A DNA stretch of 64,000 nt. It comes from a bacterium (GTDB taxonomy: Bacteria; Patescibacteriota; Microgenomatia; UBA1406; GWC2-37-13). The number at the start of each line of letters is the position of its first letter. The stretch's first letter is position 1. The DNA lies in the NCBI GenBank assembly GCA_021833625.1, contig JAKBEU010000002.1, positions 259,332 to 323,331 of the forward strand, written 5' to 3'. Of the stretch, positions 47,434 through 59,655 are shown one piece after another. The notes below the pieces were generated by a model. The model did no database searches and was not told where the DNA came from. It worked only from the letters and a program-made list of their open reading frames with translations. A program made the position numbers and the translations under genes.

Positions 47434-48606
47434 ATGTTCCAAACCCTAAAAAATTATTACCACTTAGTCCAGGCATTGCTTGCCAATCTTTTGTACGGGT
47501 TTCCAAGCCGCGAAATAAAGGTAATCGGTGTGACGGGAACCGACGGCAAGACAACGACAACTCATCTTATCTATCACATCCTCCTTAGTGCAGGAAAAAA
47601 AGTTTCGATGATTTCAACCGTCTACGGCAAAGTGGGCGAGACCGTCTACGATACGGGACTGCATGTTACGACCCCCGACCCGTTTATGATACAAAAAATG
47701 ATACGGAAAGCAGTCACGGAGGGAGACGAATACTTCATACTTGAAACCACCTCTCATGCCATCGATCAGAACAGGGTATGGGGAGTCCGATACGAAGTAG
47801 GGGTTCTGACGAATATCACTCACGAACATCTTGACTATCACAAAACAATCGACGCATATGCTCATGTCAAAATGAGACTGGTGGACGAAGCAGAACTCGG
47901 CGTCATCAATTGGGACGATGTTGTCTCCCGAAAGTATACGCATCGCAAAGACTCGATAAAGACATATGCCCTCAAAGAAAAGGCAGACTACAGCATTGAT
48001 TTCAGAAAAGAAATAAAAGATCTGGCCGACTTTAATGCATACAACTATCTTGCCGCATATACTGTCGCTCACGAACTGGGGATTTCAGACGGCGTGATAC
48101 GGAAGTCATTCCCGACATTCAGACTCCCTTCAGGACGTATTGATATCGTATACGACAAGGAGTTTAAGATTATTATTGATTTTGCCCATACGCCAAACGC
48201 AATTGACCGCATTTTGCAGACAGTACGAAAAATATATTTGCCAAGTGGAGGAAAGCTTATCCATATTTTCGGATCGGCAGGACTGAGAGACACGACAAAA
48301 CGGTTCGGAATGGGAGAGGCAAGTGCGCGCTATGCGGACAAAATTATACTGACTGAGGAAGATTATCGTACCGAGGACCCGCGTGAAATCTGCAGACAGA
48401 TAGGAGCGGGAATAACGGCATCAAAAAAACAGTTTGAAGTAATAACCGATAGGGCTCAGGCGATAGAGAAAGGAATCGGTCTCGCGAAAAAAGGAGACGT
48501 TGTCATCATCACGGGAAAAGGACATGAAAAAAGTCTGTGCCGCGGAAAAACGGAGTATCCGTGGAGCGACAAGGACTGTGTTTTGAAGGTATTGGCAAAA
48601 ACCTAA
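47434..48606 (+). CDS. murE: MurE-like Mur ligase lacking the N-terminal UDP-binding domain
   Basis: 390 aa. The P-loop GVTGTDGKTTTT already appears at residues 33-44. It also has ETTSHAIDQNRV, TNITHEHLDYH and FAHTPNA. The usual DNPR position reads EDYR. Confidence 0.75.
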   Translation: MFQTLKNYYHLVQALLANLLYGFPSREIKVIGVTGTDGKTTTTHLIYHILLSAGKKVSMISTVYGKVGETVYDTGLHVTTPDPFMIQKMIRKAVTEGDEYFILETTSHAIDQNRVWGVRYEVGVLTNITHEHLDYHKTIDAYAHVKMRLVDEAELGVINWDDVVSRKYTHRKDSIKTYALKEKADYSIDFRKEIKDLADFNAYNYLAAYTVAHELGISDGVIRKSFPTFRLPSGRIDIVYDKEFKIIIDFAHTPNAIDRILQTVRKIYLPSGGKLIHIFGSAGLRDTTKRFGMGEASARYADKIILTEEDYRTEDPREICRQIGAGITASKKQFEVITDRAQAIEKGIGLAKKGDVVIITGKGHEKSLCRGKTEYPWSDKDCVLKVLAKT

Positions 48607-48607
48607 T

Positions 48608-49354
48608 ATGCTCATACATCAGGAAGAATTAAATACGATTACTTCCACGCTCACCACAAGATATTCGTATATTACTGCCGGTTTTACGACGCGTGAAGCA
48701 GGGGACTGCCGTCAGATTGAGGTCATCAAGCGCCATTTGAAAGCGAACTATATTACCCCGCGAAAGATAGTCCTTCTTGAACAAATCCATTCGTCAAACG
48801 TCTCCAAGCCCGACACCACCCATCTAGGTGATATCGAACTTCTGGAAGACTCTGATGGCGTCCTGACAAAAGAGGCCGGAGCCTGTCTTGTCATCCGCGT
48901 TGCGGACTGCGTGCCTATCCTTTATTTTGATCCTGTCAGACGGGTAATAGGAGCGTCTCACAACGGCTGGCGGGGAACGGAAAAAAACCTGGTAGGAGAG
49001 ATGATACAGATAATGCAGCAGAACGGCTCAAAAAACGAGAATATTCATGTCTTGCTTGGTCCTGCAATAAACGCGTGCTGCTACGACATCGATCTTGATA
49101 GATATGCTCAGTTTATGGAGACAATGGAACGGTTCAACAAGGTTGCCTTCCGCCCCCACGGGGAGGGATTCCACATGAACCTCGTCCGCCTTAACTATGA
49201 GCTTGCCCTTGAAACGGGAATATATAAACGAAACATAGACTATTTCCCGTTCTGTACCTCATGCGACGCAAAACGGTTCTACTCCTTCAGACGCCAATAT
49301 AAGACCCATCCGCATGAATTTGGCGAGATGATGGGCTATATCATGCTTACCTGA
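48608..49354 (+). CDS. pgeF: YfiH/PgeF (DUF152) family protein, peptidoglycan-editing/laccase-domain
   Basis: 248 aa with the motifs LEQIHS, VADCVPIL, HNGWRG and CCY. Confidence 0.85.
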   Translation: MLIHQEELNTITSTLTTRYSYITAGFTTREAGDCRQIEVIKRHLKANYITPRKIVLLEQIHSSNVSKPDTTHLGDIELLEDSDGVLTKEAGACLVIRVADCVPILYFDPVRRVIGASHNGWRGTEKNLVGEMIQIMQQNGSKNENIHVLLGPAINACCYDIDLDRYAQFMETMERFNKVAFRPHGEGFHMNLVRLNYELALETGIYKRNIDYFPFCTSCDAKRFYSFRRQYKTHPHEFGEMMGYIMLT

Positions 49355-49386
49355 AGAAAATAGACCCATAATATTTCATTTTAGAC

Positions 49387-49415
49387 TTGAAAAATCCGGG
49401 CTAATATCCTATAAT
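49387..49415 (+). promoter_or_regulatory. Near-consensus promoter (TTGAAA-17-TATAAT), ending 9 nt before ATG 49425
   Basis: TTGAAA at 49387-49392 and TATAAT at 49410-49415. Confidence 0.55.
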
Positions 49416-49424
49416 ATCCCTCTT

Positions 49425-50060
49425 ATGGGAGAAATTGGAACATTTTATTGTCCGGAAGAGCTGCTTGAAATCCCTAACAGGAATTTAAGGCGTCTCATCC
49501 TAAAGGATATTGAAGCGAAAGGCAAAAGTCCTACGTTTGTCGTGGGGGAAGAGCTTGTTAGCTTTCCAGTCTCTCACATGTCAATTCAGCAGTTCCATAG
49601 CTACAGAAAAACGCTTATCAAATGGGGAATCGACCCGGTTAATCCGCCTCAAGGAATTGACGGACACGGATACTCACTCATGTTGACTGAAGTGCTCCGA
49701 CACGTACTAAGGGATAGTAGCGACCTTATCATACGACAAACTCCCGCCTCAATGGATTTTCTAGAACCCAGTGATGCGAGAAAATGGGGTCCTTCCTCCG
49801 ATATATATATTGGTCAACGGTTGGGAAAAAATATAACTCCTCTTTTGCTTGTTGATGCAGTCGTTGGAGGGAATGAGCACGATACTGTAATTCATCCCCA
49901 GCTTAAGATACCTGTTGTCAGTATGCCGGGAAACAAATTGTTCCGTAACGGAAAAGACGCCGTCTTTAGTTTTGGTATGAGTTCATCTCCTCTCGACTTC
50001 GCGCAGTCTCTTGCCCAAGCTGCAGGTCCCAAAATCCTCAAACGACTTGAGGGGAGATAA
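49425..50060 (+). CDS. Hypothetical protein (no recognisable domain)
   Basis: A 211-aa ORF with its own strong promoter and no competing ORF. I recognise no family. Confidence 0.6.
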   Translation: MGEIGTFYCPEELLEIPNRNLRRLILKDIEAKGKSPTFVVGEELVSFPVSHMSIQQFHSYRKTLIKWGIDPVNPPQGIDGHGYSLMLTEVLRHVLRDSSDLIIRQTPASMDFLEPSDARKWGPSSDIYIGQRLGKNITPLLLVDAVVGGNEHDTVIHPQLKIPVVSMPGNKLFRNGKDAVFSFGMSSSPLDFAQSLAQAAGPKILKRLEGR

Positions 50061-50115
50061 ATATGAGAAAGTAATAATGAAATTTTTTACTGTAATTAAA
50101 CCTTTTAGTCTAAGT

Positions 50116-50124
50116 TGGTATAAT
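50116..50124 (+). promoter_or_regulatory. Extended -10 promoter (TGgTATAAT), ending 6 nt before ATG 50131
   Basis: TGG at 50116-50118 and TATAAT at 50119-50124. Confidence 0.5.
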
Positions 50125-50130
50125 TAAATT

Positions 50131-51198
50131 ATGGGATTTCCACATCCAGCGCATACAAAGAGTGAAATTAATAGAGCAGGAGAAACGTTAATAGATTCTT
50201 CTGCGTCTCCCGACGAGAGGACGCACGCATTAGAGGTGTTGAGTAACTGGCGTGCTTGTCATGGTTATCCTGTGAATACCTTTCAGAAGACTTTAAGGGA
50301 TAGATTAAAAAAAATTGGAAGCAGTGCTCTTGTAGCTCAAAGGCTTAAACGTTTATCGACAATTGAAGATAAGCTAAAAAGACAAGAACATATGAAACTC
50401 TCAACAATGCAAGATATAGGGGGTTTAAGAGCAGTTGTTAAGACGCTTGAAGAAGTGCGAAAACTTGAATCTCTTTATGTTTCTTCTGGAAAACAATTTC
50501 AGCATGAATTGGTCACAAATCGTATAAAAGACTATATAAATAGTCCTAAAATGGACGGTTATCGAAGCATTCATCTCGTATATAAATACAAAAATAGACT
50601 TCATCCACAATACGATGGGTTTTCTATAGAGCTTCAAATTAGGACGAGACTGGAACACGTATGGGCTACTGCAGTTGAGACCATGAGCATAGCTCTTAAA
50701 CAAGCTCTAAAAACAGGTGGTGGAGAAAAAAAATGGCGTGATTTTTTTGCATTGGCTTCCTCAGTCTTTGCATATATAGAAAAAAGTCCACCGGTTCCAC
50801 AGCATAGCCATATGAGCGAGAAGCAGACATATAAAGCGTTGGCCTCTATTGCAAAAGAAATAAAAGCTGTGGAGACAATGGGTGGTATAAATTTTGCTTT
50901 AAGTAGGGTAGATATGAGTGAAAGAAGAAGAAATTTTTATTATCATTTAATAGTGCTAAACTTTGGGAAAAGAGAAGTTAATATTCAATCTTTTCCAAAG
51001 ATTGCTTTGAGCCAAGCAAACAAAGCGTACACAAATGCAGAACTAGAAGCTTCTCAAAACGGTGATACTGATGCCGTTCTTGTTTCGGCAGGTAATTTTA
51101 ATATTTTAAAAAGGGCGTATCCCAATTACTTTCTTGATATGCGAGAGTTTGTAGATACAATAACAAACATCATAGAAAGTAGTAAGTCTATGTATTAA
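50131..51198 (+). CDS. Stand-alone RelA/SpoT-fold (RSH synthetase-domain) nucleotide pyrophosphokinase
   Basis: 355 aa. The synthetase motifs are QRLKRLSTIEDKLKR, DIGGLRAVV, DGYRSIHLVY and IELQIRTRLEHVWATAVE. There are no HD hydrolase, TGS or ACT regions. An unassigned C-terminal region of about 150 aa follows. Confidence 0.8.
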   Translation: MGFPHPAHTKSEINRAGETLIDSSASPDERTHALEVLSNWRACHGYPVNTFQKTLRDRLKKIGSSALVAQRLKRLSTIEDKLKRQEHMKLSTMQDIGGLRAVVKTLEEVRKLESLYVSSGKQFQHELVTNRIKDYINSPKMDGYRSIHLVYKYKNRLHPQYDGFSIELQIRTRLEHVWATAVETMSIALKQALKTGGGEKKWRDFFALASSVFAYIEKSPPVPQHSHMSEKQTYKALASIAKEIKAVETMGGINFALSRVDMSERRRNFYYHLIVLNFGKREVNIQSFPKIALSQANKAYTNAELEASQNGDTDAVLVSAGNFNILKRAYPNYFLDMREFVDTITNIIESSKSMY

Positions 51199-51201
51199 AG
51201 T

Positions 51202-51744
51202 GTGAGTATGAATGTAATCAGTAAGCGAATCAGTGCTGCTATGAGACATTTGTCTGAAAAGGATTACGAAAATGCACTTATTCAAATAACCATCGCAATT
51301 GATGCAACTGCAAAAAAGAAATGGCCAGAAAAAGGAGTGGGAACAAGAATACGCAATTTTATTAAAGAATATGAGTCTTTCATCTACAAAATGGCTTCAT
51401 CTGGTCATATTATTTTAATTTCTGGGAGGATTCTTATCCAGGGAAGAGAATTGTCAACGATAATTTATGACCTTGTTCGTTGTGCACTTCAACACGGAGA
51501 TGAATTGGGAGATCGTGTCATAATATTAGGAAACGCAAACACGATTGGAGTAAAAGATGGCAAAATCATAATAAATGTTGGTCACATTTATGGTTTATTA
51601 TTGTCTGTAATTTTAGATCCAACAAATATTTTAGAGCATTGTGATTCAAATCCTTTTTTACAAGAAGGCGATACTAGAATATTAGTGAATGAAATATGGG
51701 GCAATATGAATAAGTTTCGTGAATTGAGTAGTGTCCGAATTTGA
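51202..51744 (+). CDS. Hypothetical protein, possible HEPN-like domain (R-x4-H)
   Basis: 180 aa, starting 3 nt (GTG 51202) or 9 nt (ATG 51208) after the RSH stop. The N-terminal half looks helical (DYENALIQITIAIDATAKKK) and ends in VRCALQHG (nt 51478-51495). The fold assignment is speculative. Confidence 0.55.
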   Translation: MSMNVISKRISAAMRHLSEKDYENALIQITIAIDATAKKKWPEKGVGTRIRNFIKEYESFIYKMASSGHIILISGRILIQGRELSTIIYDLVRCALQHGDELGDRVIILGNANTIGVKDGKIIINVGHIYGLLLSVILDPTNILEHCDSNPFLQEGDTRILVNEIWGNMNKFRELSSVRI

Positions 51745-51826
51745 TTCAAAAGTTTACATCCTTATGTCACGTTCTGAGCACGATTCGACTTGTTCAACAG
51801 TTTGGCGTATAATTTGGTAACTTGTT

Positions 51827-53011
51827 ATGCCAAACAGCAAACTTTCTAACGCAAAAAAAGCAAAAAATGATGAGTTTTATACACAATATCACGACATCGA
51901 GAAAGAAATCTCTGCCTATATTGAATATAACCCCGATGTGTTTCGAGGCAAAACGGTACTTTTGCCCTGTGATGACCCAGAATGGAGTAACTTTACCAAG
52001 TTTTTTGCCCAAAACTTTGAAAGATTTGGCCTGAAGAAGCTTATTAGCACAAGCTATGCTGCTGATAGCAAGAATTATAAAAGTAGTTATCAGCCAACCC
52101 TTTTCGAAAAGCGTGATCAAAAATATGACAAAAATAAAACCACCAAAAACGGAAAGATTTTTACCTTGACACGTGACAAGACGGGTGATGGAAAGGTGGA
52201 TGTAAACGATCTGGAGTGGCAGTACTTAATAGGCGATGGCGACTTCAGGAGTAGTGAGATAAAAAAATTATGTGATGAGTCAGATATCATAATTACTAAC
52301 CCACCATTTTCTTTATTCCGAGTATTTTTAGCTTGGATTGTGGAAGCAAACAAGCAATTTGTAATAATCGGAAACAAAAATTGTGTCACTTATAAAGAAG
52401 TTTTTCCGCTAATCAAAAAAAATAAAATGTGGTCAGGGCGTACTGAGTGGAGCGGTGGTTTATGGTTTGAAACAAAAAACCCAGATGATGTCGACAAAAT
52501 TATTAATGGACTGAATATGAAAAATGTGTCGTCAGTTTGGTTTACTAATATTGATCACGGTAGGCGTCACGAGCATATCCCACTAATGACGATATCAGAT
52601 AATCTGAAGTACAGCAAACACAAGGAAATTAAAGGTAAAAAAATGTATGAGAAGTATGATAATTACGATGCTATAGAAGTACCATTTACTGATGCAATCC
52701 CGAGTGACTATAGTGGCGTAATGGGTGTTCCGATTACATTTCTTGATAAATATTCACCTGAGCAATTCAATATTTTAGGGGCCACTCAAAGAGGCTGTCA
52801 CGATGAAGTTCCTGATACAAAAAAGTATGATGATTATTGGGAGGTGAAACAAAATGGACAAAAGACTGGATCATCTGGTGGAAAAACAAATGAAAATGCA
52901 AATTTAATTGGCAATGACGGAAAAAAGAATTACTTTACAAATAAAGATGGTAGAGTAATTCAATCTGCATATCAGAGAATATTTATTAAACATAAGAAAA
53001 AAACAACATGA
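51827..53011 (+). CDS. DNA methyltransferase, NPPF catalytic motif (EcoRI-methylase-like family; N6-adenine or N4-cytosine)
   Basis: 394 aa with [14 protein letters not shown] at the N-terminus, [13 protein letters not shown] and [17 protein letters not shown] at 51808-51813 lies 13 nt upstream. Confidence 0.8.
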
Positions 53012-54213
53012 TAACAACCTTAAAAACAAAAATTACAATTAAAGATATTTGTAAGGGATTTGTTTACAATGAACTTGAAGGTAAGGGTTTATTTGGCTTG
53101 TCTGGCAAATTAACTATTCAGCCAGAGTACCAGCGCAACTATATTTATTCGTCAGGTGATGGCAAAAAAGAGATAGCTGTAATCAATTCAATCCTCAAAG
53201 ATTATCCTCTTGGTTTAATATATTTCAATAAAGTTAATGATGACGATCTAGAAGTTTTAGATGGTCAGCAGCGCATTACTAGCATCGGAAGATTTGTTAA
53301 TAATAAATTTGCTATCAAAGATGAAAACGGTATGGAACAATATTTTAGCGGCATTGCAGCTGACAAGCAGACTAAGATTTTAGAAACAAAATTACTCATT
53401 TATGAATGTGAGGGCAAGGAAAGCGAGATAAAAGAATGGTTTCGGACGATTAATATCGCTGGAGTTCCCCTAGCCAATCAGGAGTTGCTTAACGCCGTAT
53501 ATTCCGGGCCATTTGTGACACTTTGCAAAGAAGAATTCAGCAATAGTCAGAACGCAAATATCCAAAAATGGAGCACTTATATTTCTGGTAGTGCCGACAG
53601 GCAGGAATTTTTAGAACGGGCACTTGACTGGGTAAGTAAGGATTGGGAAGATAAGAATAATGATCCAGCACACACAAGACCAATCGGAAAATATATGAGT
53701 AAACGTCGTTATGAAAAAAATATTTCCGAATTAAAATTATATTTTAATGGCGTGATTAATTGGGTATCTAGCGTTTTTACAGATATCGAAAGTGAAATGC
53801 GAGGATTAGAATGGGGACGACTATATGAAGAATATCACAAGAAAACATATGATCCTACTAAAATATCTGCCGAAGTACATAAACTTTATAGTGATCCATA
53901 TATTAAAAATCGCAAGGGTATTTTTGAATATATTCTCGGTGGTTCTACCGACACAAAACTACTGGATGTGAGGGTTTTTGACGACGCAACAAAACGAAGT
54001 GCTTATGGAACTCAAACTGCTGAAGCTGAGAAGAAAGATAAATCAAATTGTCCATATTGTGCTATTGGGCATGATGTGAATAAAAATAAAATTTGGAAAT
54101 TGAGCGAAATGGATGCAGACCATGTGGCAGCATGGAGTAAGGGTGGTAAGACTATGGCTAAGAATTGTCAGATGTTATGTAAGTCGCACAACCGTGCAAA
54201 GGGAAACCGATAA
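53008..54213 (+). CDS. DUF262 (ParB/GmrSD N-terminal-like) domain fused to an HNH nuclease
   Basis: 401 aa with the DUF262 motifs IQPEYQRNY and LDGQQRITS. The C-terminal HNH reads CPYCAIGH ... [12 protein letters not shown] ... [15 protein letters not shown]. It has an ATGA overlap with the methyltransferase stop. Confidence 0.85.
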
Positions 54214-54287
54214 GAAATTACTTTTTATGATGCATTTACAACAAATGATGACCTGATTAGATTAGAGCAGTGGTAGTATTGTCGTTT

Positions 54288-54923
54288 ATGTATAACCTTG
54301 ATGAGTATAAAAGATTGACTTCAAAATATTGCTATTATGCTAGCTGGGCGATTTGGAATAAAGAAAAAGAAGACGACTCTTCAATTATTGATCAGCATCT
54401 AGACCAACTGCACTCAAAATTTGTATTAGTTGGACTAAATATATCTCATTCATTGGCTGGTAAAGCATGGTCAAACTTTCACGGCGGAAAGCACGATAGA
54501 AAATTGAAGTATGCTTGTAATGATACTAAGCTACGAGGATCTTACATAACAGATATTTTTAAAGATATTGATGAAGTGAGCTCAAAAAATCTTAAAAATA
54601 TTCTTACAGAAAAAGTGATAAATAAAAATGTTAGTTTCTTCAATCAAGAAATGAAGGATATAAAGATTAGTGGCGATACTCAATTTATTGTCCTTGGGAC
54701 ACCAACTTCTTTGCTTGCAGAATATTTTGACAAATATTTTAAACAAAAATACAAAAATCACATTATTTACCACTATCACCATTCTTACTATGGACTTACG
54801 GATAGAGAATGGGTTTGTGGGCTTTGGAAAAAATTGAGTATTAACAAAAATTTTGATATGGTCACAAAAAAAGAATCAGCAGTACACAAGGATGGGATGA
54901 TTTTCTTTCCGAGCAAAATCTAA
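54288..54923 (+). CDS. Hypothetical protein, possibly a degenerate UDG/Mug-superfamily fold
   Basis: The start is set at ATG 54288, 8 nt after TGgTAGTAT (54271-54279). The motif order VLVGLNISHSLAG ... GSYITDIFK ... FIVLG ... YHYHHSYYGL parallels Mug/TDG (GINPG ... NPSGLS) from memory. The family call is weak. Confidence 0.5.
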   Translation: MYNLDEYKRLTSKYCYYASWAIWNKEKEDDSSIIDQHLDQLHSKFVLVGLNISHSLAGKAWSNFHGGKHDRKLKYACNDTKLRGSYITDIFKDIDEVSSKNLKNILTEKVINKNVSFFNQEMKDIKISGDTQFIVLGTPTSLLAEYFDKYFKQKYKNHIIYHYHHSYYGLTDREWVCGLWKKLSINKNFDMVTKKESAVHKDGMIFFPSKI

Positions 54924-54958
54924 TGTCCTAGTTTTGGAATATTTGTTACATTTAATAC

Positions 54959-55312
54959 GTGGATACAAAAAACCAATACTCAACCAAAGTGGCTAAGGTT
55001 CTACAAAATGCTTTTGAAAAAAGAGGAATTAAAGTTGAAATGGAATTTTTTGATGGATACAAGCATGTTGATCTTTTTTTGCCAGAAGCAAAAATAAATG
55101 TTGAAGTAGACGGAGATCAACATCTGATAAATGCAGAACAAATTATCAGGGATTTCTCTAGAGAATATTATTCCGAAAGAGCAGGCTATCATACTCTGCA
55201 TATACCTAACGCAGAAGCTTTGAGTTATTGTGAAAAAATAGCTGATGCACTAAAGGAAATTGTTTTAATGTGTAAATTAAAGAAATTATCAACTCAAAAA
55301 TTGTCATCATAA
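54959..55312 (+). CDS. DUF559/Vsr-like restriction-endonuclease-fold protein
   Basis: 117 aa with a GTG start. The core HVDLFLPEAKINVEVDGDQH resembles the DUF559 D...E.D.G..H pattern. Confidence 0.6.
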   Translation: MDTKNQYSTKVAKVLQNAFEKRGIKVEMEFFDGYKHVDLFLPEAKINVEVDGDQHLINAEQIIRDFSREYYSERAGYHTLHIPNAEALSYCEKIADALKEIVLMCKLKKLSTQKLSS

Positions 55313-55345
55313 TTTCATAATAACCGTTTATAAATTATCACTAAT

Positions 55346-55564
55346 ATGAAAAAAATAGTAGTCGCTACAATAGGAATACTCGCGTTTTTGTATCTCGTTT
55401 ATCCAAGTTTTGGAATATTTGAACTGATTCCTGATAATATTCCATTTATTGGAAACTTAGATGAGGGAGGGGCAACTTTTCTTTTATTAAACGCGCTTTC
55501 ATATTTTGGTTTAGACTTAACAAACGTGTTTGGTTGGGGAGGAAAAACAGTAAAAAGAACTTAA
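55346..55564 (+). CDS. DUF1232 (YkvA-like) small membrane protein
   Basis: 72 aa with the motif ELIPDNIPFIGNLDEGG flanked by hydrophobic helices. Confidence 0.6.
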   Translation: MKKIVVATIGILAFLYLVYPSFGIFELIPDNIPFIGNLDEGGATFLLLNALSYFGLDLTNVFGWGGKTVKRT

Positions 55565-55591
55565 AGTTGCATATTGGTGTAATATAAAACT

Positions 55592-55990
55592 ATGAACACC
55601 ACATATTCCTGGTACTCAAAACTTATTAAACCGTCCTGGGCGCCGCCTTCTTTTCTTTTCGGTCCTGTCTGGACATTTCTTTATGTCCTGATTGTGATTT
55701 CCTTCAGCAGCGTGTTTGTAAAGTTATTCCAAGGGAAGATCCCCTTTGTTGTGGCATTGCCTTTTATTCTGAATCTCATTTTCAATCTTACCTTCACGTA
55801 CTTTCAGTTCGGACTGATGAATAATGAGCTTGCAGCGATAGATGTCATTTTGACGCTTATCACTCTTATTTGGGCGATGGTTGCGATATATCCGTATGCA
55901 CATTGGATCACCTATATGCAAATCCCTTATGTCATGTGGGTCTCGTTTGCAACAGTACTGCAACTTACCGTGACCTATTTAAACAGATAA
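55592..55990 (+). CDS. tspO: TspO/MBR-family tryptophan-rich membrane protein (short, apparently missing TM1)
   Basis: 132 aa. It begins directly at the conserved WYSKLIKPSWAPPSFLFGPVWTFLY segment. Confidence 0.8.
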   Translation: MNTTYSWYSKLIKPSWAPPSFLFGPVWTFLYVLIVISFSSVFVKLFQGKIPFVVALPFILNLIFNLTFTYFQFGLMNNELAAIDVILTLITLIWAMVAIYPYAHWITYMQIPYVMWVSFATVLQLTVTYLNR

Positions 55991-55993
55991 GTT

Positions 55994-57226
55994 CTATTTA
56001 AATTCCTTCATACAGTTCACGAGATAATCTATCTCGTCTTTCGTATGAGTCGCGCTTATCTGGATGCGGATCTCATCGCGTCCTTTCGCAACCACTGGAT
56101 AACTGATGTTCGTGACCAGAATGTTTTTGTCAAAAAGGAAATCCACAAGTCCTCTCGTTTTAACGGGATCACCGATTAGTACTGGTTGAATGGCGTGTGT
56201 CGACTCCGCTGCAAAGACGAATCCTGCTGCCACTACCTGTTTTTTGAAATACGCGGTGTTGTCGCGGGACGATTGCAGCAATTTTTTCCCTTCTTCACTG
56301 TCCACTATCTGTACTGACTTAAGAGCTGCTCCTGCAGTGCCGGGAGAAATGGAATTGGAATAGATATAGGTGGCTGACGACTCGCGCAGATAGTTGATTA
56401 TCTGTTGGTTTGCAACGACATATCCGCCGTCTGACCCGAGGCCTTTGCCGAATGTACCGACCAGTACGTCCGCTTTCGCTCCCTTTAACTCCTCGACTCC
56501 GCGCCCCGTTTCGCCGCACGAGGCAACGCCGTGGCAGTCGTCCATGACAAGAAGAACTCCAAGTGGATACTCCGCGTCAAACTTGTCAACAATCGTTCTC
56601 ATCTCATCCAACTTCTGGTATTCCCCAAGCATGCTAAACACTCCGTCGGTGACGACCAGTACGCGGGAATATTTTCCCTTGTTAGCTGACAACACGTTCG
56701 TCAGACTTTCCATGTTCATATGTTCGAATACGACGCGTTGTTCTTTGGGAAGATTCGCGAGACGGATACCGTCAATGATGCTGCGGTGATTGAGCGCATC
56801 CGATACGACGAGTACGTCACTTGTTACTTTCGAATCTTTGCTTTGTCCGCTGATAAGACAATAGAGGACGGCGAGGTTTGCCGCGAATGCGGAAGAAAAG
56901 ACCATAGCGTCGTCCCGGCCATGAAACTTCGCAACGGCGTGTTCCAGGTCGCGATGTATTTTCATCGATCCCGAGACGAAACGGACGGCTCCCGGTCCCG
57001 CACCGTATTGCTGAGAGGCTGCATGTTCCGCTTCTTTGACTTCCGCGTTGTGGCGCAGTCCAAGGTAATCGTTGGAATTAAAAATCGTAACGTCTTTGCC
57101 GTCTATTTTTGCAACGGTGGGAGAGCTGAATGACTCGATAATCCGTTCATTCCGTTTTGACGTTTTGACTCCATCAATGCGCGCAACTTCGGAGTCGAGG
57201 ATTGAAAGAAACTGTTGTTTTGCCAT
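55994..57226 (-). CDS. kbl: 2-amino-3-ketobutyrate CoA ligase / 8-amino-7-oxononanoate synthase family (class II aminotransferase)
   Basis: 410 aa with the PLP-lysine context GTFGKGLG. It pairs with the upstream threonine dehydrogenase-like gene. Confidence 0.8.
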   Translation of the reverse strand: MAKQQFLSILDSEVARIDGVKTSKRNERIIESFSSPTVAKIDGKDVTIFNSNDYLGLRHNAEVKEAEHAASQQYGAGPGAVRFVSGSMKIHRDLEHAVAKFHGRDDAMVFSSAFAANLAVLYCLISGQSKDSKVTSDVLVVSDALNHRSIIDGIRLANLPKEQRVVFEHMNMESLTNVLSANKGKYSRVLVVTDGVFSMLGEYQKLDEMRTIVDKFDAEYPLGVLLVMDDCHGVASCGETGRGVEELKGAKADVLVGTFGKGLGSDGGYVVANQQIINYLRESSATYIYSNSISPGTAGAALKSVQIVDSEEGKKLLQSSRDNTAYFKKQVVAAGFVFAAESTHAIQPVLIGDPVKTRGLVDFLFDKNILVTNISYPVVAKGRDEIRIQISATHTKDEIDYLVNCMKEFK

Positions 57227-57231
57227 AGGAA

Positions 57232-58170
57232 TTATTTTTGCAATTTAATTTTTAATCCTTCATACATTGTCTTTGTCATTTTAGCCAAATCGAATTTCGC
57301 CCTCCAACCCCAATCCTTTCTCGCCTGACTGTCATCAATTGATTGTGGCCATGTTTCGGCAATCTTCTGCCTTTCATCTATTTTGTAGTCGTAGGTAAAG
57401 TCGGGAACGAGTTTTTTGAGTTCTTCGCCAAGTTCCTTCGGGGTAAAACTAATGGCTCCAAAGTTGTAGCTTGTGCGGATCGTGATATTTTCAACAGGCG
57501 CCTCCATGAGTTGTATCGTTCCGTCTATCGCATCGTCGATATACATCATGGGGAGCCGGGCATCTTCCTTCAGGAAAATGCTGTAATGTTTTTCATTTAT
57601 CGCTCCGTAAAAAATATGGACGGAGTATTCGGTGGTGCCATCCCCTGGTGGCGCTTTGTATCCCGTGAGACCCGGATAGCGGAGTGAACGGACGTCCACT
57701 CCCCATTTCAGATTGTAATATTGGCACAGAAGTTCTCCCGCAACCTTGTTGACGCCGTACATTGTCGTCGGTTCAAGGATGGTGTGCTGTGGGGTGTTTA
57801 CTTTCGGAGTCGTGGGGCCGAATGCTGCAATCGATGAAGGCCAAAATACTTTGAGTTTGTATTTCACTGCCAGATCAAGAATATTTTTGAGTCCCCCTAA
57901 GTTTACTTCCCATGCCAATTGCGGGTTTTTTTCACTCGCAACGGACAAAAGTCCCGCTAAGTGATAGACCTCGGTAATGCCGTGCTTCTCGATAATTTTG
58001 GCAAGAGTTTCCGTGTCGCGGATATCGGCCTTTTCCACTAGTGCTTCAGAATCTGCAACCGCCTTATGGCTTATTGCAACAAGCGAACCTTTAGGATATT
58101 TTTTTGATAATGCAGCTATTAAATCACTCCCGACCAGTCCAAAAGCACCCGTCACCAGTATTTTTTTCAT
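57232..58170 (-). CDS. tdh: NAD-dependent epimerase-fold L-threonine 3-dehydrogenase-like protein
   Basis: 312 aa with the Rossmann motif KILVTGAFGLVGSDL and the YGVNK catalytic pattern. The tdh call rests on operon context with kbl. Confidence 0.7.
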   Translation of the reverse strand: MKKILVTGAFGLVGSDLIAALSKKYPKGSLVAISHKAVADSEALVEKADIRDTETLAKIIEKHGITEVYHLAGLLSVASEKNPQLAWEVNLGGLKNILDLAVKYKLKVFWPSSIAAFGPTTPKVNTPQHTILEPTTMYGVNKVAGELLCQYYNLKWGVDVRSLRYPGLTGYKAPPGDGTTEYSVHIFYGAINEKHYSIFLKEDARLPMMYIDDAIDGTIQLMEAPVENITIRTSYNFGAISFTPKELGEELKKLVPDFTYDYKIDERQKIAETWPQSIDDSQARKDWGWRAKFDLAKMTKTMYEGLKIKLQK

Positions 58171-58248: not shown

Positions 58249-59655
58249 ATGATTCTTGACAAGCAATCATTTTTCCTGCTCGGGATTAAGGGAACCGCAA
58301 TGTCGAATATCTCCGTGATGTTAAAACAGATGGGGAAGTCGGTGACGGGAGTTGACATAAATGAAGAGTTTATTACCGATAAGGTCCTGAGAGATAATGA
58401 AATCTCCTATTCGACTAACTTTGACGATTTATCCCAAATAAACAGTTGTGACGTATTAGTCTATTCAGCCGCCCATAAGGGAGAAGAAAACCCGTTGGCG
58501 CTTGAAGCGAAGCGACAGGGGAAGCTTGTTGTCTCTCAGCCCGAACTCATAGGTGAATTGGTGCAACGATACAAGACTTCAATTGCCGTTGCCGGGTGTC
58601 ATGGAAAGACGACAACAGCCTCACTTTGCGCCTGGGCGCTCACCAAACTTGAGAAAAATCCGGGCTTTCTTATCGGTGCCCCAACCTTCAACGGTTTTGG
58701 GGGAGGGGGCATGTCTTATTCCGACTACTTTGTCATTGAGGCTGACGAATACGGAGTCCATCCGCCCGTCAATAAGACCCCAAAGCTCCTTTTTCTTCAT
58801 CCCACCTACACGCTCTGCACGAATATAGACTTTGACCATCCAGATGTATATAGTAGTCTTGAGGATACGAAAAAGACTTTTTTGCAGTTTTTCTCGCAGG
58901 CGCAACATCTTATTTTGTGCGCAAGCGACCCTGTTCTTGCCTCACTTCTTCCAATAAAACACCCATCAGTCGTGACATATGGCCTGGAGTCAAAGCACGA
59001 TTACTGTGCCGAAGACATTCTATTTGAGCCTGACAGGACGCACTTTACGGTCCGTAATAAAGGGACGGTTTTAGGCACGTTTACTACCCAATTGTTCGGG
59101 GAAAAGAACGTGCTGAATGCCCTCGGCGTGATCGCACTCCTTTTTGAGCTTGGATTCGGTGCTTCAGAGATTCAGGCATCAATCCTTGGATTTATGGGTG
59201 CAAAACGGAGACTTGAGCTTGTATGGACGGATAAAAACACCTATCTTTTCGATGATTACGGCCACCACCCGGCAGAGATTGAGGCGACGATTGAGGCTGT
59301 GAGAAGCAGGTTTGAGGGAAAAAAACTCCATGTATTGTTCCAGCCTCATACCTATTCGCGCACAGCCGCTCTCAAACATGAGTTCGCAACCGCACTTTCC
59401 AAAGCTGATTTTGCCTATATCATGCCTATTTTCCCTTCCGCCCGCGAAAAAAAAGAACTATTTAACGTAAGCTCCGCGGACGTGGCTAGTGAAGCTAAGA
59501 GTGGGCATGTTGTCGCATACGAAGGAGCAGGGGGAATTCTCTCCGGTTTAGCCTCAAACGTGAAAAGGGGAGATATTATCCTGACGATGGGTGCGGGGGA
59601 TATTTACAAGCTAAAAGATGATATAATTGATGTACTCAATGAAACACAAAATTGA
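58249..59655 (+). CDS. murC: UDP-N-acetylmuramate--L-alanine ligase
   Basis: 468 aa with the P-loop GCHGKTTT, FVIEADEYG and DDYGHHPAEI. TATAAT at 58237-58242 ends 6 nt before the ATG. Confidence 0.9.
   Translation: MILDKQSFFLLGIKGTAMSNISVMLKQMGKSVTGVDINEEFITDKVLRDNEISYSTNFDDLSQINSCDVLVYSAAHKGEENPLALEAKRQGKLVVSQPELIGELVQRYKTSIAVAGCHGKTTTASLCAWALTKLEKNPGFLIGAPTFNGFGGGGMSYSDYFVIEADEYGVHPPVNKTPKLLFLHPTYTLCTNIDFDHPDVYSSLEDTKKTFLQFFSQAQHLILCASDPVLASLLPIKHPSVVTYGLESKHDYCAEDILFEPDRTHFTVRNKGTVLGTFTTQLFGEKNVLNALGVIALLFELGFGASEIQASILGFMGAKRRLELVWTDKNTYLFDDYGHHPAEIEATIEAVRSRFEGKKLHVLFQPHTYSRTAALKHEFATALSKADFAYIMPIFPSAREKKELFNVSSADVASEAKSGHVVAYEGAGGILSGLASNVKRGDIILTMGAGDIYKLKDDIIDVLNETQN

Follow-up and report, generated by a model that had tools for sequence, protein, structure and literature searches.

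The closest known system to one protein considered here is CapRelSJ46. Its crystal structure is available, and its functional residues include Y155 in the G-loop, R79 and R116, which coordinate ATP, and Y352 and Y355, which form the autoinhibitory YxxY motif of a C-terminal pseudo-zinc-finger domain (pseudo-ZFD) (PMC9712102). Genomic islands carrying restriction-modification (R-M) systems have already been described in Patescibacteria (PMC12455944). Here we analyze a small gene island which combines a predicted CapRel-family protein with a predicted type II R-M operon and lies between the genes pgeF and murC of a patescibacterial genome (GCA_021833625.1, contig JAKBEU010000002.1). This genome, below called G000, comprises 1.10 Mb in 3 contigs and is 99.6% complete. 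Its small size, the neighbors of its genes, and named metagenome-assembled genomes among the homologs all point to Patescibacteria, i.e., to the candidate phyla radiation. The window, i.e., the whole stretch of 64,000 nucleotides that was analyzed, is G000:C1:259332-323331, and coordinates given without a prefix are counted from its first letter.

The original prediction, made from the letters of the window, placed an AT-rich accessory block of defense-type genes at 49,355-55,591, in the middle of the dcw/mur (division and cell wall) gene cluster. We read the segment 50.06-55.59 kb as a recently acquired mosaic defense island of low guanine-plus-cytosine (GC) content in a lineage-specific slot between pgeF and murC, and we give this reading a probability of about 0.8. 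A recent acquisition is favored because the GC content at third codon positions (GC3) of the island genes has not been ameliorated, because no relative carries an island gene in this slot, and because the sequence upstream of tspO, the gene at the island's right edge, is unrelated in the closest relative. The locus shows the usual marks of a defense island: two unrelated systems, CapRel and type II R-M, stand together, GC deviates from the genome mean by z = -3.0, and relatives have either nothing or another cargo in the slot.

Gene turnover between pgeF and murC

For the synteny comparison PgeF and MurC were searched in 30 relatives, and all proteins of the window were mapped onto the syntenic loci. 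The order conserved in relatives is rsmH-ftsL-ftsI-murE-pgeF, then the slot, then murC-murB-murA-glmU. The distance between pgeF and murC is 8.9 kb in our genome. The two genes share a contig in 27 relatives, and in 14 of these less than 160 bp separate them, so the predicted splitting of the dcw/mur cluster is real. A short gap is seen in two congeneric species (G005 and G012) and also in other families of the order.

Where the slot is filled, its cargo differs between species. A 387-aa uncharacterized protein is present in G001 and G007, an aminotransferase with an epimerase in G003 and G004, and the same pair accompanied by HD and glyoxalase genes in G002. The slot of G010 and G011 holds a 392-aa membrane protein and tspO, and that of G009 holds tspO, the aminotransferase, and the epimerase. 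The last two proteins share 75-98% identity with ours in G002, G003, G004, and G009. Neither the 211-aa orphan gene next to pgeF nor any gene of the low-GC block was found in the slot of any of the 30 relatives, the slot of G009 being visible only for 225 bp upstream of tspO. This absence, together with the PADLOC hits PDC-S33, MTase_II, and REase_II, agrees with the description of the block as accessory and defense-type. The slot thus varies by species within the genus and is a general hotspot of gene turnover rather than a dedicated defense locus. Between pgeF and murC we counted eleven open reading frames (ORFs), eight of them within 49355-55591, and not the nine genes proposed at first.

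The block stands out in base composition. Sliding-window GC is 0.30-0.38 across approximately 50.0-55.6 kb, compared with 0.42-0.52 in the flanks; before the drop, on the left, the values are 0.42-0.49. The island as a whole has a GC of 0.345 against a genome mean of 0.416 (the z value above refers to 5.5-kb windows with a standard deviation of 0.024) and ranks in the lowest 1.3% of such windows in the genome. GC3 is 0.20-0.33 in the seven ORFs spanning 50131-55564 and 0.41-0.55 in mraZ through pgeF, in tspO, the aminotransferase, and the epimerase, and in murC through glmU. The AT-richness first judged by eye at about 50.1-55.6 kb is confirmed by these figures. Neither a flat GC and codon-usage profile nor the same gene set in all relatives was found: GC dips, and the genes are missing from the relatives' slot. 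The 211-aa orphan ORF that opens the slot has a GC3 of 0.41. Because this value is core-like while the seven following ORFs are low, the island, as judged by composition, extends from approximately 50,061 to 55,591 and is slightly narrower than the interval predicted originally, whose right edge holds and whose left edge moves inward.

Other extended low-GC regions of G000 were seen at C2:202-218 kb (minimum 0.307), C3:1-38 kb, C3:66-89 kb, and C1:1-21 kb. Some of them are more extreme than the island, and they are candidate horizontally acquired blocks. No repeats or paralogs of the island were found elsewhere in G000, and the genome has no second copy of it.

The closest relative, G009, defines the right boundary. 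Its MurC and MurB are 91% identical to ours, its TspO 94%, and its aminotransferase and epimerase 98%. The alignment of G009 with the window starts at the start codon of tspO and runs rightward, and the 225 bp upstream of it in G009 are unrelated. Because homology begins there, the island ends on its right side no more than a few bases from 55,591. The 225 bp of G009 (L027:1-225; G009:C14) have a GC of 0.30 and contain an apparent gene start on the opposite strand, MSLTNITSNNMFEIIGEEF..., so this species appears to carry a different AT-rich cargo at the same insertion point. The identity of the aminotransferase and epimerase (55994-58170 versus L027:627-2809) exceeds that of their neighbors; the sub-block may have been exchanged recently between species, or it may be under stronger constraint.

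The original prediction was right in placing the edge of the island at tspO, but the missing first transmembrane helix that it noted there is not an effect of the island. TspO is also 132 aa long in G009 (L027:226-624) and 138 aa in G010 and G011 (L020:4764-5180), with the same Pfam coordinates 20-144. No island gene adjoins tspO in G010 and G011, where the slots are fully sequenced, or in G009 within the 225 bp upstream. TspO proteins of the genus start at Pfam profile position 20, and the canonical first transmembrane helix seems to be missing from them with or without the island. Since the length is the same in G009, where no island gene adjoins, the short N-terminus is a lineage trait and not insertion damage.

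The genes and flanks of the locus are collected in Table 1. Some peculiarities of the surrounding cell-wall genes may be mentioned here. MurE (47434-48606) has 390 aa and consists of the Mur_ligase_M and C domains only, without the N-terminal Mur-ligase domain. Because relatives in the genus have ORFs of equal length (389-395 aa; L013:2965-4152, L014:2884-4065, L015:16721-17902, and L020:1650-2819), the short MurE is a conserved lineage trait and not a truncation. The murC match of G018 (G018:C4:70128-71333) is interrupted by 14 in-frame stops, suggestive of a pseudogene. Open frames of 773-834 aa at murC in G005:C4, G012:C1, and G029:C70 suggest a MurC-MurB fusion.

Table 1. Genes of the pgeF-murC slot and its flanks (window coordinates).
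Feature	Coordinates	Strand	Evidence and remarks
pgeF (Cu-oxidase_4 family)	48608..49354	+	Pfam 2e-50; left conserved flank; murC directly next in many relatives
211-aa orphan accessory gene	49425..50060	+	in the slot, outside the low-GC block; native-like composition
Predicted CapRel-family fused toxSAS toxin-antitoxin, 355 aa	50131..51198	+	PADLOC PDC-S33, PDB, and PHROGs matches
PF27329 ("Rv1289") family protein, 178 aa	51208..51744	+	precomputed Pfam label; starts 9 nt past the CapRel stop
Predicted type II N6-adenine DNA methyltransferase, EcoRI-methylase family	51827..53011	+	PF13651 1.2e-114; PADLOC MTase_II 2e-81
Predicted restriction endonuclease, DUF262/GmrSD_N plus C-terminal HNH	53008..54213	+	PADLOC REase_II 2.2e-81, full length
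Putative UDG-fold protein, 211 aa, motifs VGLNxS and HYS	54288..54923	+	AF2 fold comparison; uncharacterized family
Small DUF559/Vsr-like PD-(D/E)xK-fold protein	54959..55312	+	Pfam DUF559; 117 aa from GTG, or 90 aa from ATG at 55040
Predicted membrane mini-protein, 72 aa, hydrophobic	55346..55564	+	GC3 0.22; last low-GC gene
tspO (132 aa)	55592..55990	+	TspO Pfam 3e-26; GC3 0.50; right boundary; native to the slot
Class I/II aminotransferase and NAD-dependent epimerase/dehydratase	55994..58170	-	Pfam; older cargo common to the slot
murC	58249..59655	+	Pfam Mur_ligase N, M, and C domains; right conserved flank by synteny

Defense modules and accompanying genes

The first gene of the low-GC block had been taken for a RelA/SpoT-fold enzyme with a partner. 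The RelA_SpoT domain (PF04607, 7e-18) is indeed present, but the partner falls away: the pair is not conserved, and the protein itself has the sequence of a fused toxin-antitoxin. An N-terminal toxSYNTH domain of the tRNA-pyrophosphokinase type is predicted to be followed by a C-terminal autoinhibitory sensor domain. The PADLOC model PDC-S33 is matched over its full length (3.4e-121, model positions 1-343 of 349), phrog_4773 is matched at 4e-105, and residues 8-342 align with the sequences of PDB entries 7ztb and 9erv (7ztb positions 15-364) at E 3.9e-33. The G-loop tyrosine is kept as Y144 in GYRSIH, corresponding to Y155 of CapRelSJ46, and the catalytic ELQIRT (ExQxRT) lies at 167. The ATP-coordinating arginines are kept as R71 (VAQRLKR), equivalent to R79, and R100 (GGLRA), equivalent to R116 of 7ztb. 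The autoinhibitory YxxY is kept in the same ORF as YPNY at 330-333, where AYPNYF aligns with the AYPNYF that contains Y352 and Y355. Because the match is full-length and all these catalytic and autoinhibitory residues are retained, we assign the protein, on sequence grounds, to the CapRel family as a complete and self-contained fused toxin-antitoxin, which should need no partner.

By analogy, the C-terminal domain of the protein would block the enzyme by placing YPNY in the toxSYNTH ATP site. Binding of a phage protein would release this autoinhibition, and the freed CapRel would pyrophosphorylate the 3' ends of tRNAs, so that translation would stop and the infection would be aborted.

No full-length CapRel-like gene occurs in the 30 relatives. 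Among homologs on long contigs, the nearest (72% identity) is solitary, its neighbors being dinB and a gene for a LexA-like peptidase. In two metagenome-assembled genomes (MAGs) of the candidate phyla radiation, from Sungiibacteriota and Buchananbacteria, a CapRel homolog of 39-41% identity lies directly downstream of a nuclease of the same DUF262-HNH family as that of our island (L096:5210-6265 and L111:3017-4075), the order of modules being different from the island. Such recurrence of CapRel with DUF262-HNH is typical co-localization in defense islands.

The methylase and nuclease genes form the predicted R-M operon. The methylase has its catalytic motif NPPF at residue 158. The nuclease contains a GmrSD_N domain (Pfam 1e-20) with DGQQR at 85 and an HNH domain (1.6e-6) whose profile is covered from 1 to 47 of 47. 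The methylase stop and the nuclease start overlap in the sequence ATGA. At least 583 relatives of the nuclease were confirmed among species-representative genomes. The best 80 of them are 75-80% identical to ours and come from Patescibacteria, Bacteroidota, Chloroflexota, Omnitrophota, Proteobacteria, and one Pacearchaeota MAG. An EcoRI-like methylase is present in the upstream flank at 73 of these 80 loci and is directly adjacent at 54. Because of the ATGA overlap and of the recurrence of the methylase at 73/80 loci, the two genes are best regarded as a translationally coupled type II R-M operon. The cassette is highly promiscuous. The pairing of a methyltransferase with a DUF262-HNH nuclease had been predicted correctly. 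The pair would cut unmethylated incoming DNA. Its distribution is patchy: the nuclease was detected in 9 of 120 other genomes of the taxonomic family, at unrelated loci, and in none of the genus. An apparently higher conservation of the nuclease than of the methylase across loci was rejected as a selection artifact, the loci having been ranked by nuclease identity.

Four further low-GC genes accompany the two systems. The PF27329 protein has an R-x4-H motif (RCALQH; R91 and H96) that is invariant across 15 homologs. These homologs follow a HinfI-type R-M system or adjoin a GIY-YIG nuclease, and never a RelA/SpoT gene. The gene is also missing beside the 72%-identical CapRel homolog, and a role as conserved CapRel partner was rejected on both counts. 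Its AlphaFold 2 (AF2) model, with a predicted local distance difference test score (pLDDT) of 88, includes beta strands and has no significant match in PDB; the hits to AbiV and to a HEPN-domain protein have E > 6 and probability <0.1. A HEPN fold, to which R-x4-H could belong, found no significant structural match and is at most a candidate. One unnamed viral protein matches the model at a template-modeling score (TM) of 0.5.

The next protein had been predicted to resemble uracil-DNA glycosylase (UDG) and to form a pair with the DUF559 nuclease. The true start of its gene is the ATG at 54288, because homologs align from residue 7. The three best PDB fold matches of the AF2 model (pLDDT 94) are TDG, a rhizobial UNG, and SMUG1 (E 0.012-0.05, TM about 0.45), and conserved VGLNxS and HYS are located where UDG motifs A and B would be. 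The protein itself has no Pfam or PDB sequence match; among 52 members of its family, which has 524 representative relatives, four match Pfam UDG (PF03167). This comparison of models lends weak support to a divergent fold of the UDG superfamily. The gene is absent from 120 other genomes of the taxonomic family. At 80 metagenomic loci its neighbors vary (HAD hydrolase at 7, an uncharacterized protein at 6, type I methylase or S subunits at 4), and a large serine recombinase adjoins the homolog at 3 of the 80. Members of this protein family thus wander among R-M systems, recombinases, and other variable loci. The conserved pairing was not retained: no DUF559 homolog was found near any of the 80 loci in a tblastn search with one short query, which can miss very distant relatives.

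DUF559 (PF04480) itself stands: the match covers profile positions 45-105 of 109 and, at 24.3 bits (E 3.1e-5), exceeds the gathering score of 20.6. The nuclease activity is predicted. The core of this protein is VDLFLP...EVDGDQH, and it also matches MTES_1575 REase at 1.8e-4. Other assemblies annotate it as 90 aa. The 72-aa protein, described in the original prediction as a DUF1232 membrane protein, remains below the gathering scores both for DUF1232 (PF06803; 11 bits versus 23, E 0.37) and for DUF6116 (15.5 versus 27 bits, E 0.017). A motif of the type IPDxIPxIGxLDE is visible in it, and the resemblance to DUF1232 and DUF6116 is at the level of motifs only.

We infer that the PF27329, UDG-fold, DUF559, and 72-aa genes are hitch-hikers typical of defense islands, among them candidates for an RNase, for a nuclease, and for an enzyme of base excision directed at modified phage DNA. 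It is conceivable, though rather improbable, that the UDG-fold protein is a new stand-alone type of DNA-glycosylase defense which would excise modified phage bases, and PF27329 an R-M-associated abortive-infection effector of the RNase type.

The 211-aa orphan lies in the slot outside the low-GC block. It has no match in Pfam, PADLOC, NCBIfam, or PHROGs, and a survey of 222 further genomes of the order found it in 4. The copy of G010 is on contig C30, and the pgeF-murC slot of that genome is on C50. This gene is also accessory.

Origin of the island

How did these genes come to lie between pgeF and murC? A chimera of metagenome assembly or binning, joining foreign low-GC DNA to the cluster, might be suspected from the abrupt change in GC and from the fact that four independent metagenome assemblies break their contigs within 55245-55290, in the 3'-terminal part of the DUF559 gene. 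This segment has a GC of about 0.25 and no repeat in the genome, and the breaks could reflect low coverage of AT-rich DNA or strain heterogeneity. Independent assemblies from NCBI, ENA, and Logan, however, agree on the locus at 99.98-100% identity, and at least three of them span both junctions at 100% identity (GCA_021780255.1, Logan SRR13178628, and the genome of the window), so that an artifact is hardly conceivable. A decayed integrative element, i.e., a prophage, an integrative and conjugative element, or an integrative mobilizable element that has lost its recombinase and att sites, deserves more attention. An imperfect direct repeat of 19/24 nt sharing TTTAGACTT (49371-49394 and 55501-55524) brackets the whole accessory block, and only 0.5% of shuffles of the junction regions matched or exceeded it; CapRel homologs form a phage protein family (phrog_4773), and the UDG-like homologs beside large serine recombinases noted above point the same way. 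But the repeat was tested post hoc, its right copy falls within the 72-aa ORF, and no empty site confirms it as att. It is a weak lead for a decayed element, and other flanking repeats are at chance level. Neither a recombinase or transposase nor a phage structural or conjugation gene was found in the island with Pfam, PADLOC, NCBIfam, and PHROGs, and no tRNA lies within 30 kb of it, the only tRNA of the window being at 17.7 kb. The absence of mobility genes, flanking tRNA, and obvious repeats had been predicted and holds apart from the weak 19/24 match. A recombinase, a tRNA or att target, and clear flanking direct repeats, by which integrative elements are recognized, are thus missing. The modules are also distributed independently elsewhere, and we regard a decayed element as unlikely.

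An old, domesticated acquisition was suggested originally from promoters that resemble those of the core genome. The resemblance is genuine. In the 906 long ORFs of G000, hexamers resembling the -10 box (TATAAT-like) peak 6-9 nt before the ATG (33% of ORFs versus 10% at a control position). Their frequency is 9.2% where the gap is 6 nt, compared with a background near 1.2%, and pentamers resembling the Shine-Dalgarno sequence are depleted upstream of starts (2% versus 5% at the control position). The start signal of the genome is therefore leaderless in style. Operon-leading genes of the locus follow the same pattern, with distances of 6-13 nt from the end of the box to the ATG: 6 nt for the TATAAT of the CapRel gene, 9 nt for the TTGAAA-17-TATAAT of the 211-aa orphan, and 13 nt for the promoter-like TCGACT-17-TATAAT of the methylase gene. 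All island genes are, moreover, co-directional with the dcw operon, so that one could see here an old part of the core whose low GC results from gene-specific constraints. Several nearest homologs of the island genes come from MAGs labeled Patescibacteria, and the promoter style is equally explained by donors of the same phylum, which may share the start style. Against great age speak the GC3 of the island genes, which lies below that of the flanks, the absence of every one of them from the slot in all relatives examined, and the unrelated sequence upstream of tspO in G009 despite flanking proteins that are 91-98% identical. The old-domesticated reading is largely refuted. It is also very improbable that the genes serve housekeeping functions, as a small alarmone synthetase (SAS), a UDG with Vsr-like repair enzyme, and an orphan regulatory methylase. 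The RelA_SpoT domain does match the SAS enzymes YjbM and YwaC (1e-8 to 1e-9), and the UDG and Vsr-like folds are classical repair folds. Yet the match to CapRel is full-length and includes the C-terminal autoinhibitory YxxY, which SAS enzymes lack, the methylase appears translationally coupled to a nuclease with which its family recurs, and both the patchy distribution and the foreign composition disagree with housekeeping.

We therefore return to the recently acquired defense island. It is a mosaic whose modules are distributed independently of one another in other genomes. The DNA would most likely have been taken up and then inserted by homologous recombination in the conserved cell-wall genes on either side. 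Several observations weigh against this interpretation. The cargo of the slot in other species is not defense-related. G009 is 65% complete and no pgeF contig was found in it, so that comparison with it fixes the right boundary but neither the left one nor an empty site, and all conspecific contigs (99.98-100% identical in DNA) represent essentially one population and so provide no evidence of presence or absence within the species. Genome-wide analysis of observed-to-expected ratios of palindromes points to no recognition site of the R-M system: GAATTC (0.90) and CAATTG (1.08) are not avoided, and depletion is confined to CTAG, GATC, and GGCC, which are generic cases. No function could be assigned to four of the eight genes, and for all genes here function is a matter of prediction.

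Comparison with known systems

Ultra-small host-dependent bacteria are often assumed to be poor in defenses, and this locus is a clean example of a multi-layer defense islet in such an organism. It joins a predicted restriction system to a predicted CapRel-type enzyme of abortive infection, a type known from experiments in enterobacteria, and it is inserted in the middle of a cell-wall gene cluster without a mobility gene. The pgeF-murC junction, as a hotspot of gene turnover in the genus, could serve for tracking gene flow in metagenomes. The two small families, UDG-fold and PF27329, are candidates for functional study.

With CapRelSJ46 (PDB 7ZTB; Zhang et al. 2022, PMC9712102) the island protein shares the single ORF, the full-length match, and all key residues, and members of the family are also found in phages. 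The hosts are different, an enterobacterial prophage for CapRelSJ46 and an ultra-small Patescibacteria-like organism for the island. Identity is low in the central sensor region (pseudo-ZFD), so the trigger of the island protein cannot be read across from CapRelSJ46. The PF27329 gene that closely follows the island CapRel has no counterpart beside CapRelSJ46.

The R-M pair resembles type II systems with methylases of the EcoRI family (gamma class, NPPF) in the PF13651 methylase, in the order methylase then nuclease within an operon, and in the PADLOC assignment as MTase_II and REase_II, each over the full length. R.EcoRI and R.MunI are nucleases of the PD-(D/E)xK type, whereas the island nuclease is predicted to combine DUF262 (ParB/GmrSD_N, DGQQR) with HNH. 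This architecture is better known from type IV enzymes (GmrSD, BrxU, and SspE). The putative UDG-fold protein recalls the UDG superfamily (TDG/MUG, SMUG1, and family-1 UNG) in its top fold matches, in G-x-N-x-S at the place of motif A (GxNPG), and in H-Y-S at motif B, but it differs in having only a modest fold similarity (TM about 0.45, E 0.01-0.05) and no sequence-level match.

As a whole the locus agrees with other defense islands and core-flanked hotspots in the clustering of unrelated modules, in atypical GC, in patchy phyletic distribution, and in a cargo varying among relatives. It differs from typical ones in its very small size (5.5 kb), in its position inside the dcw/mur cluster, and in the lack of a recombinase. 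Both recognizable systems, CapRel and type II R-M, come from known families. Current concepts are unchanged, and we have here a clear but ordinary defense island.

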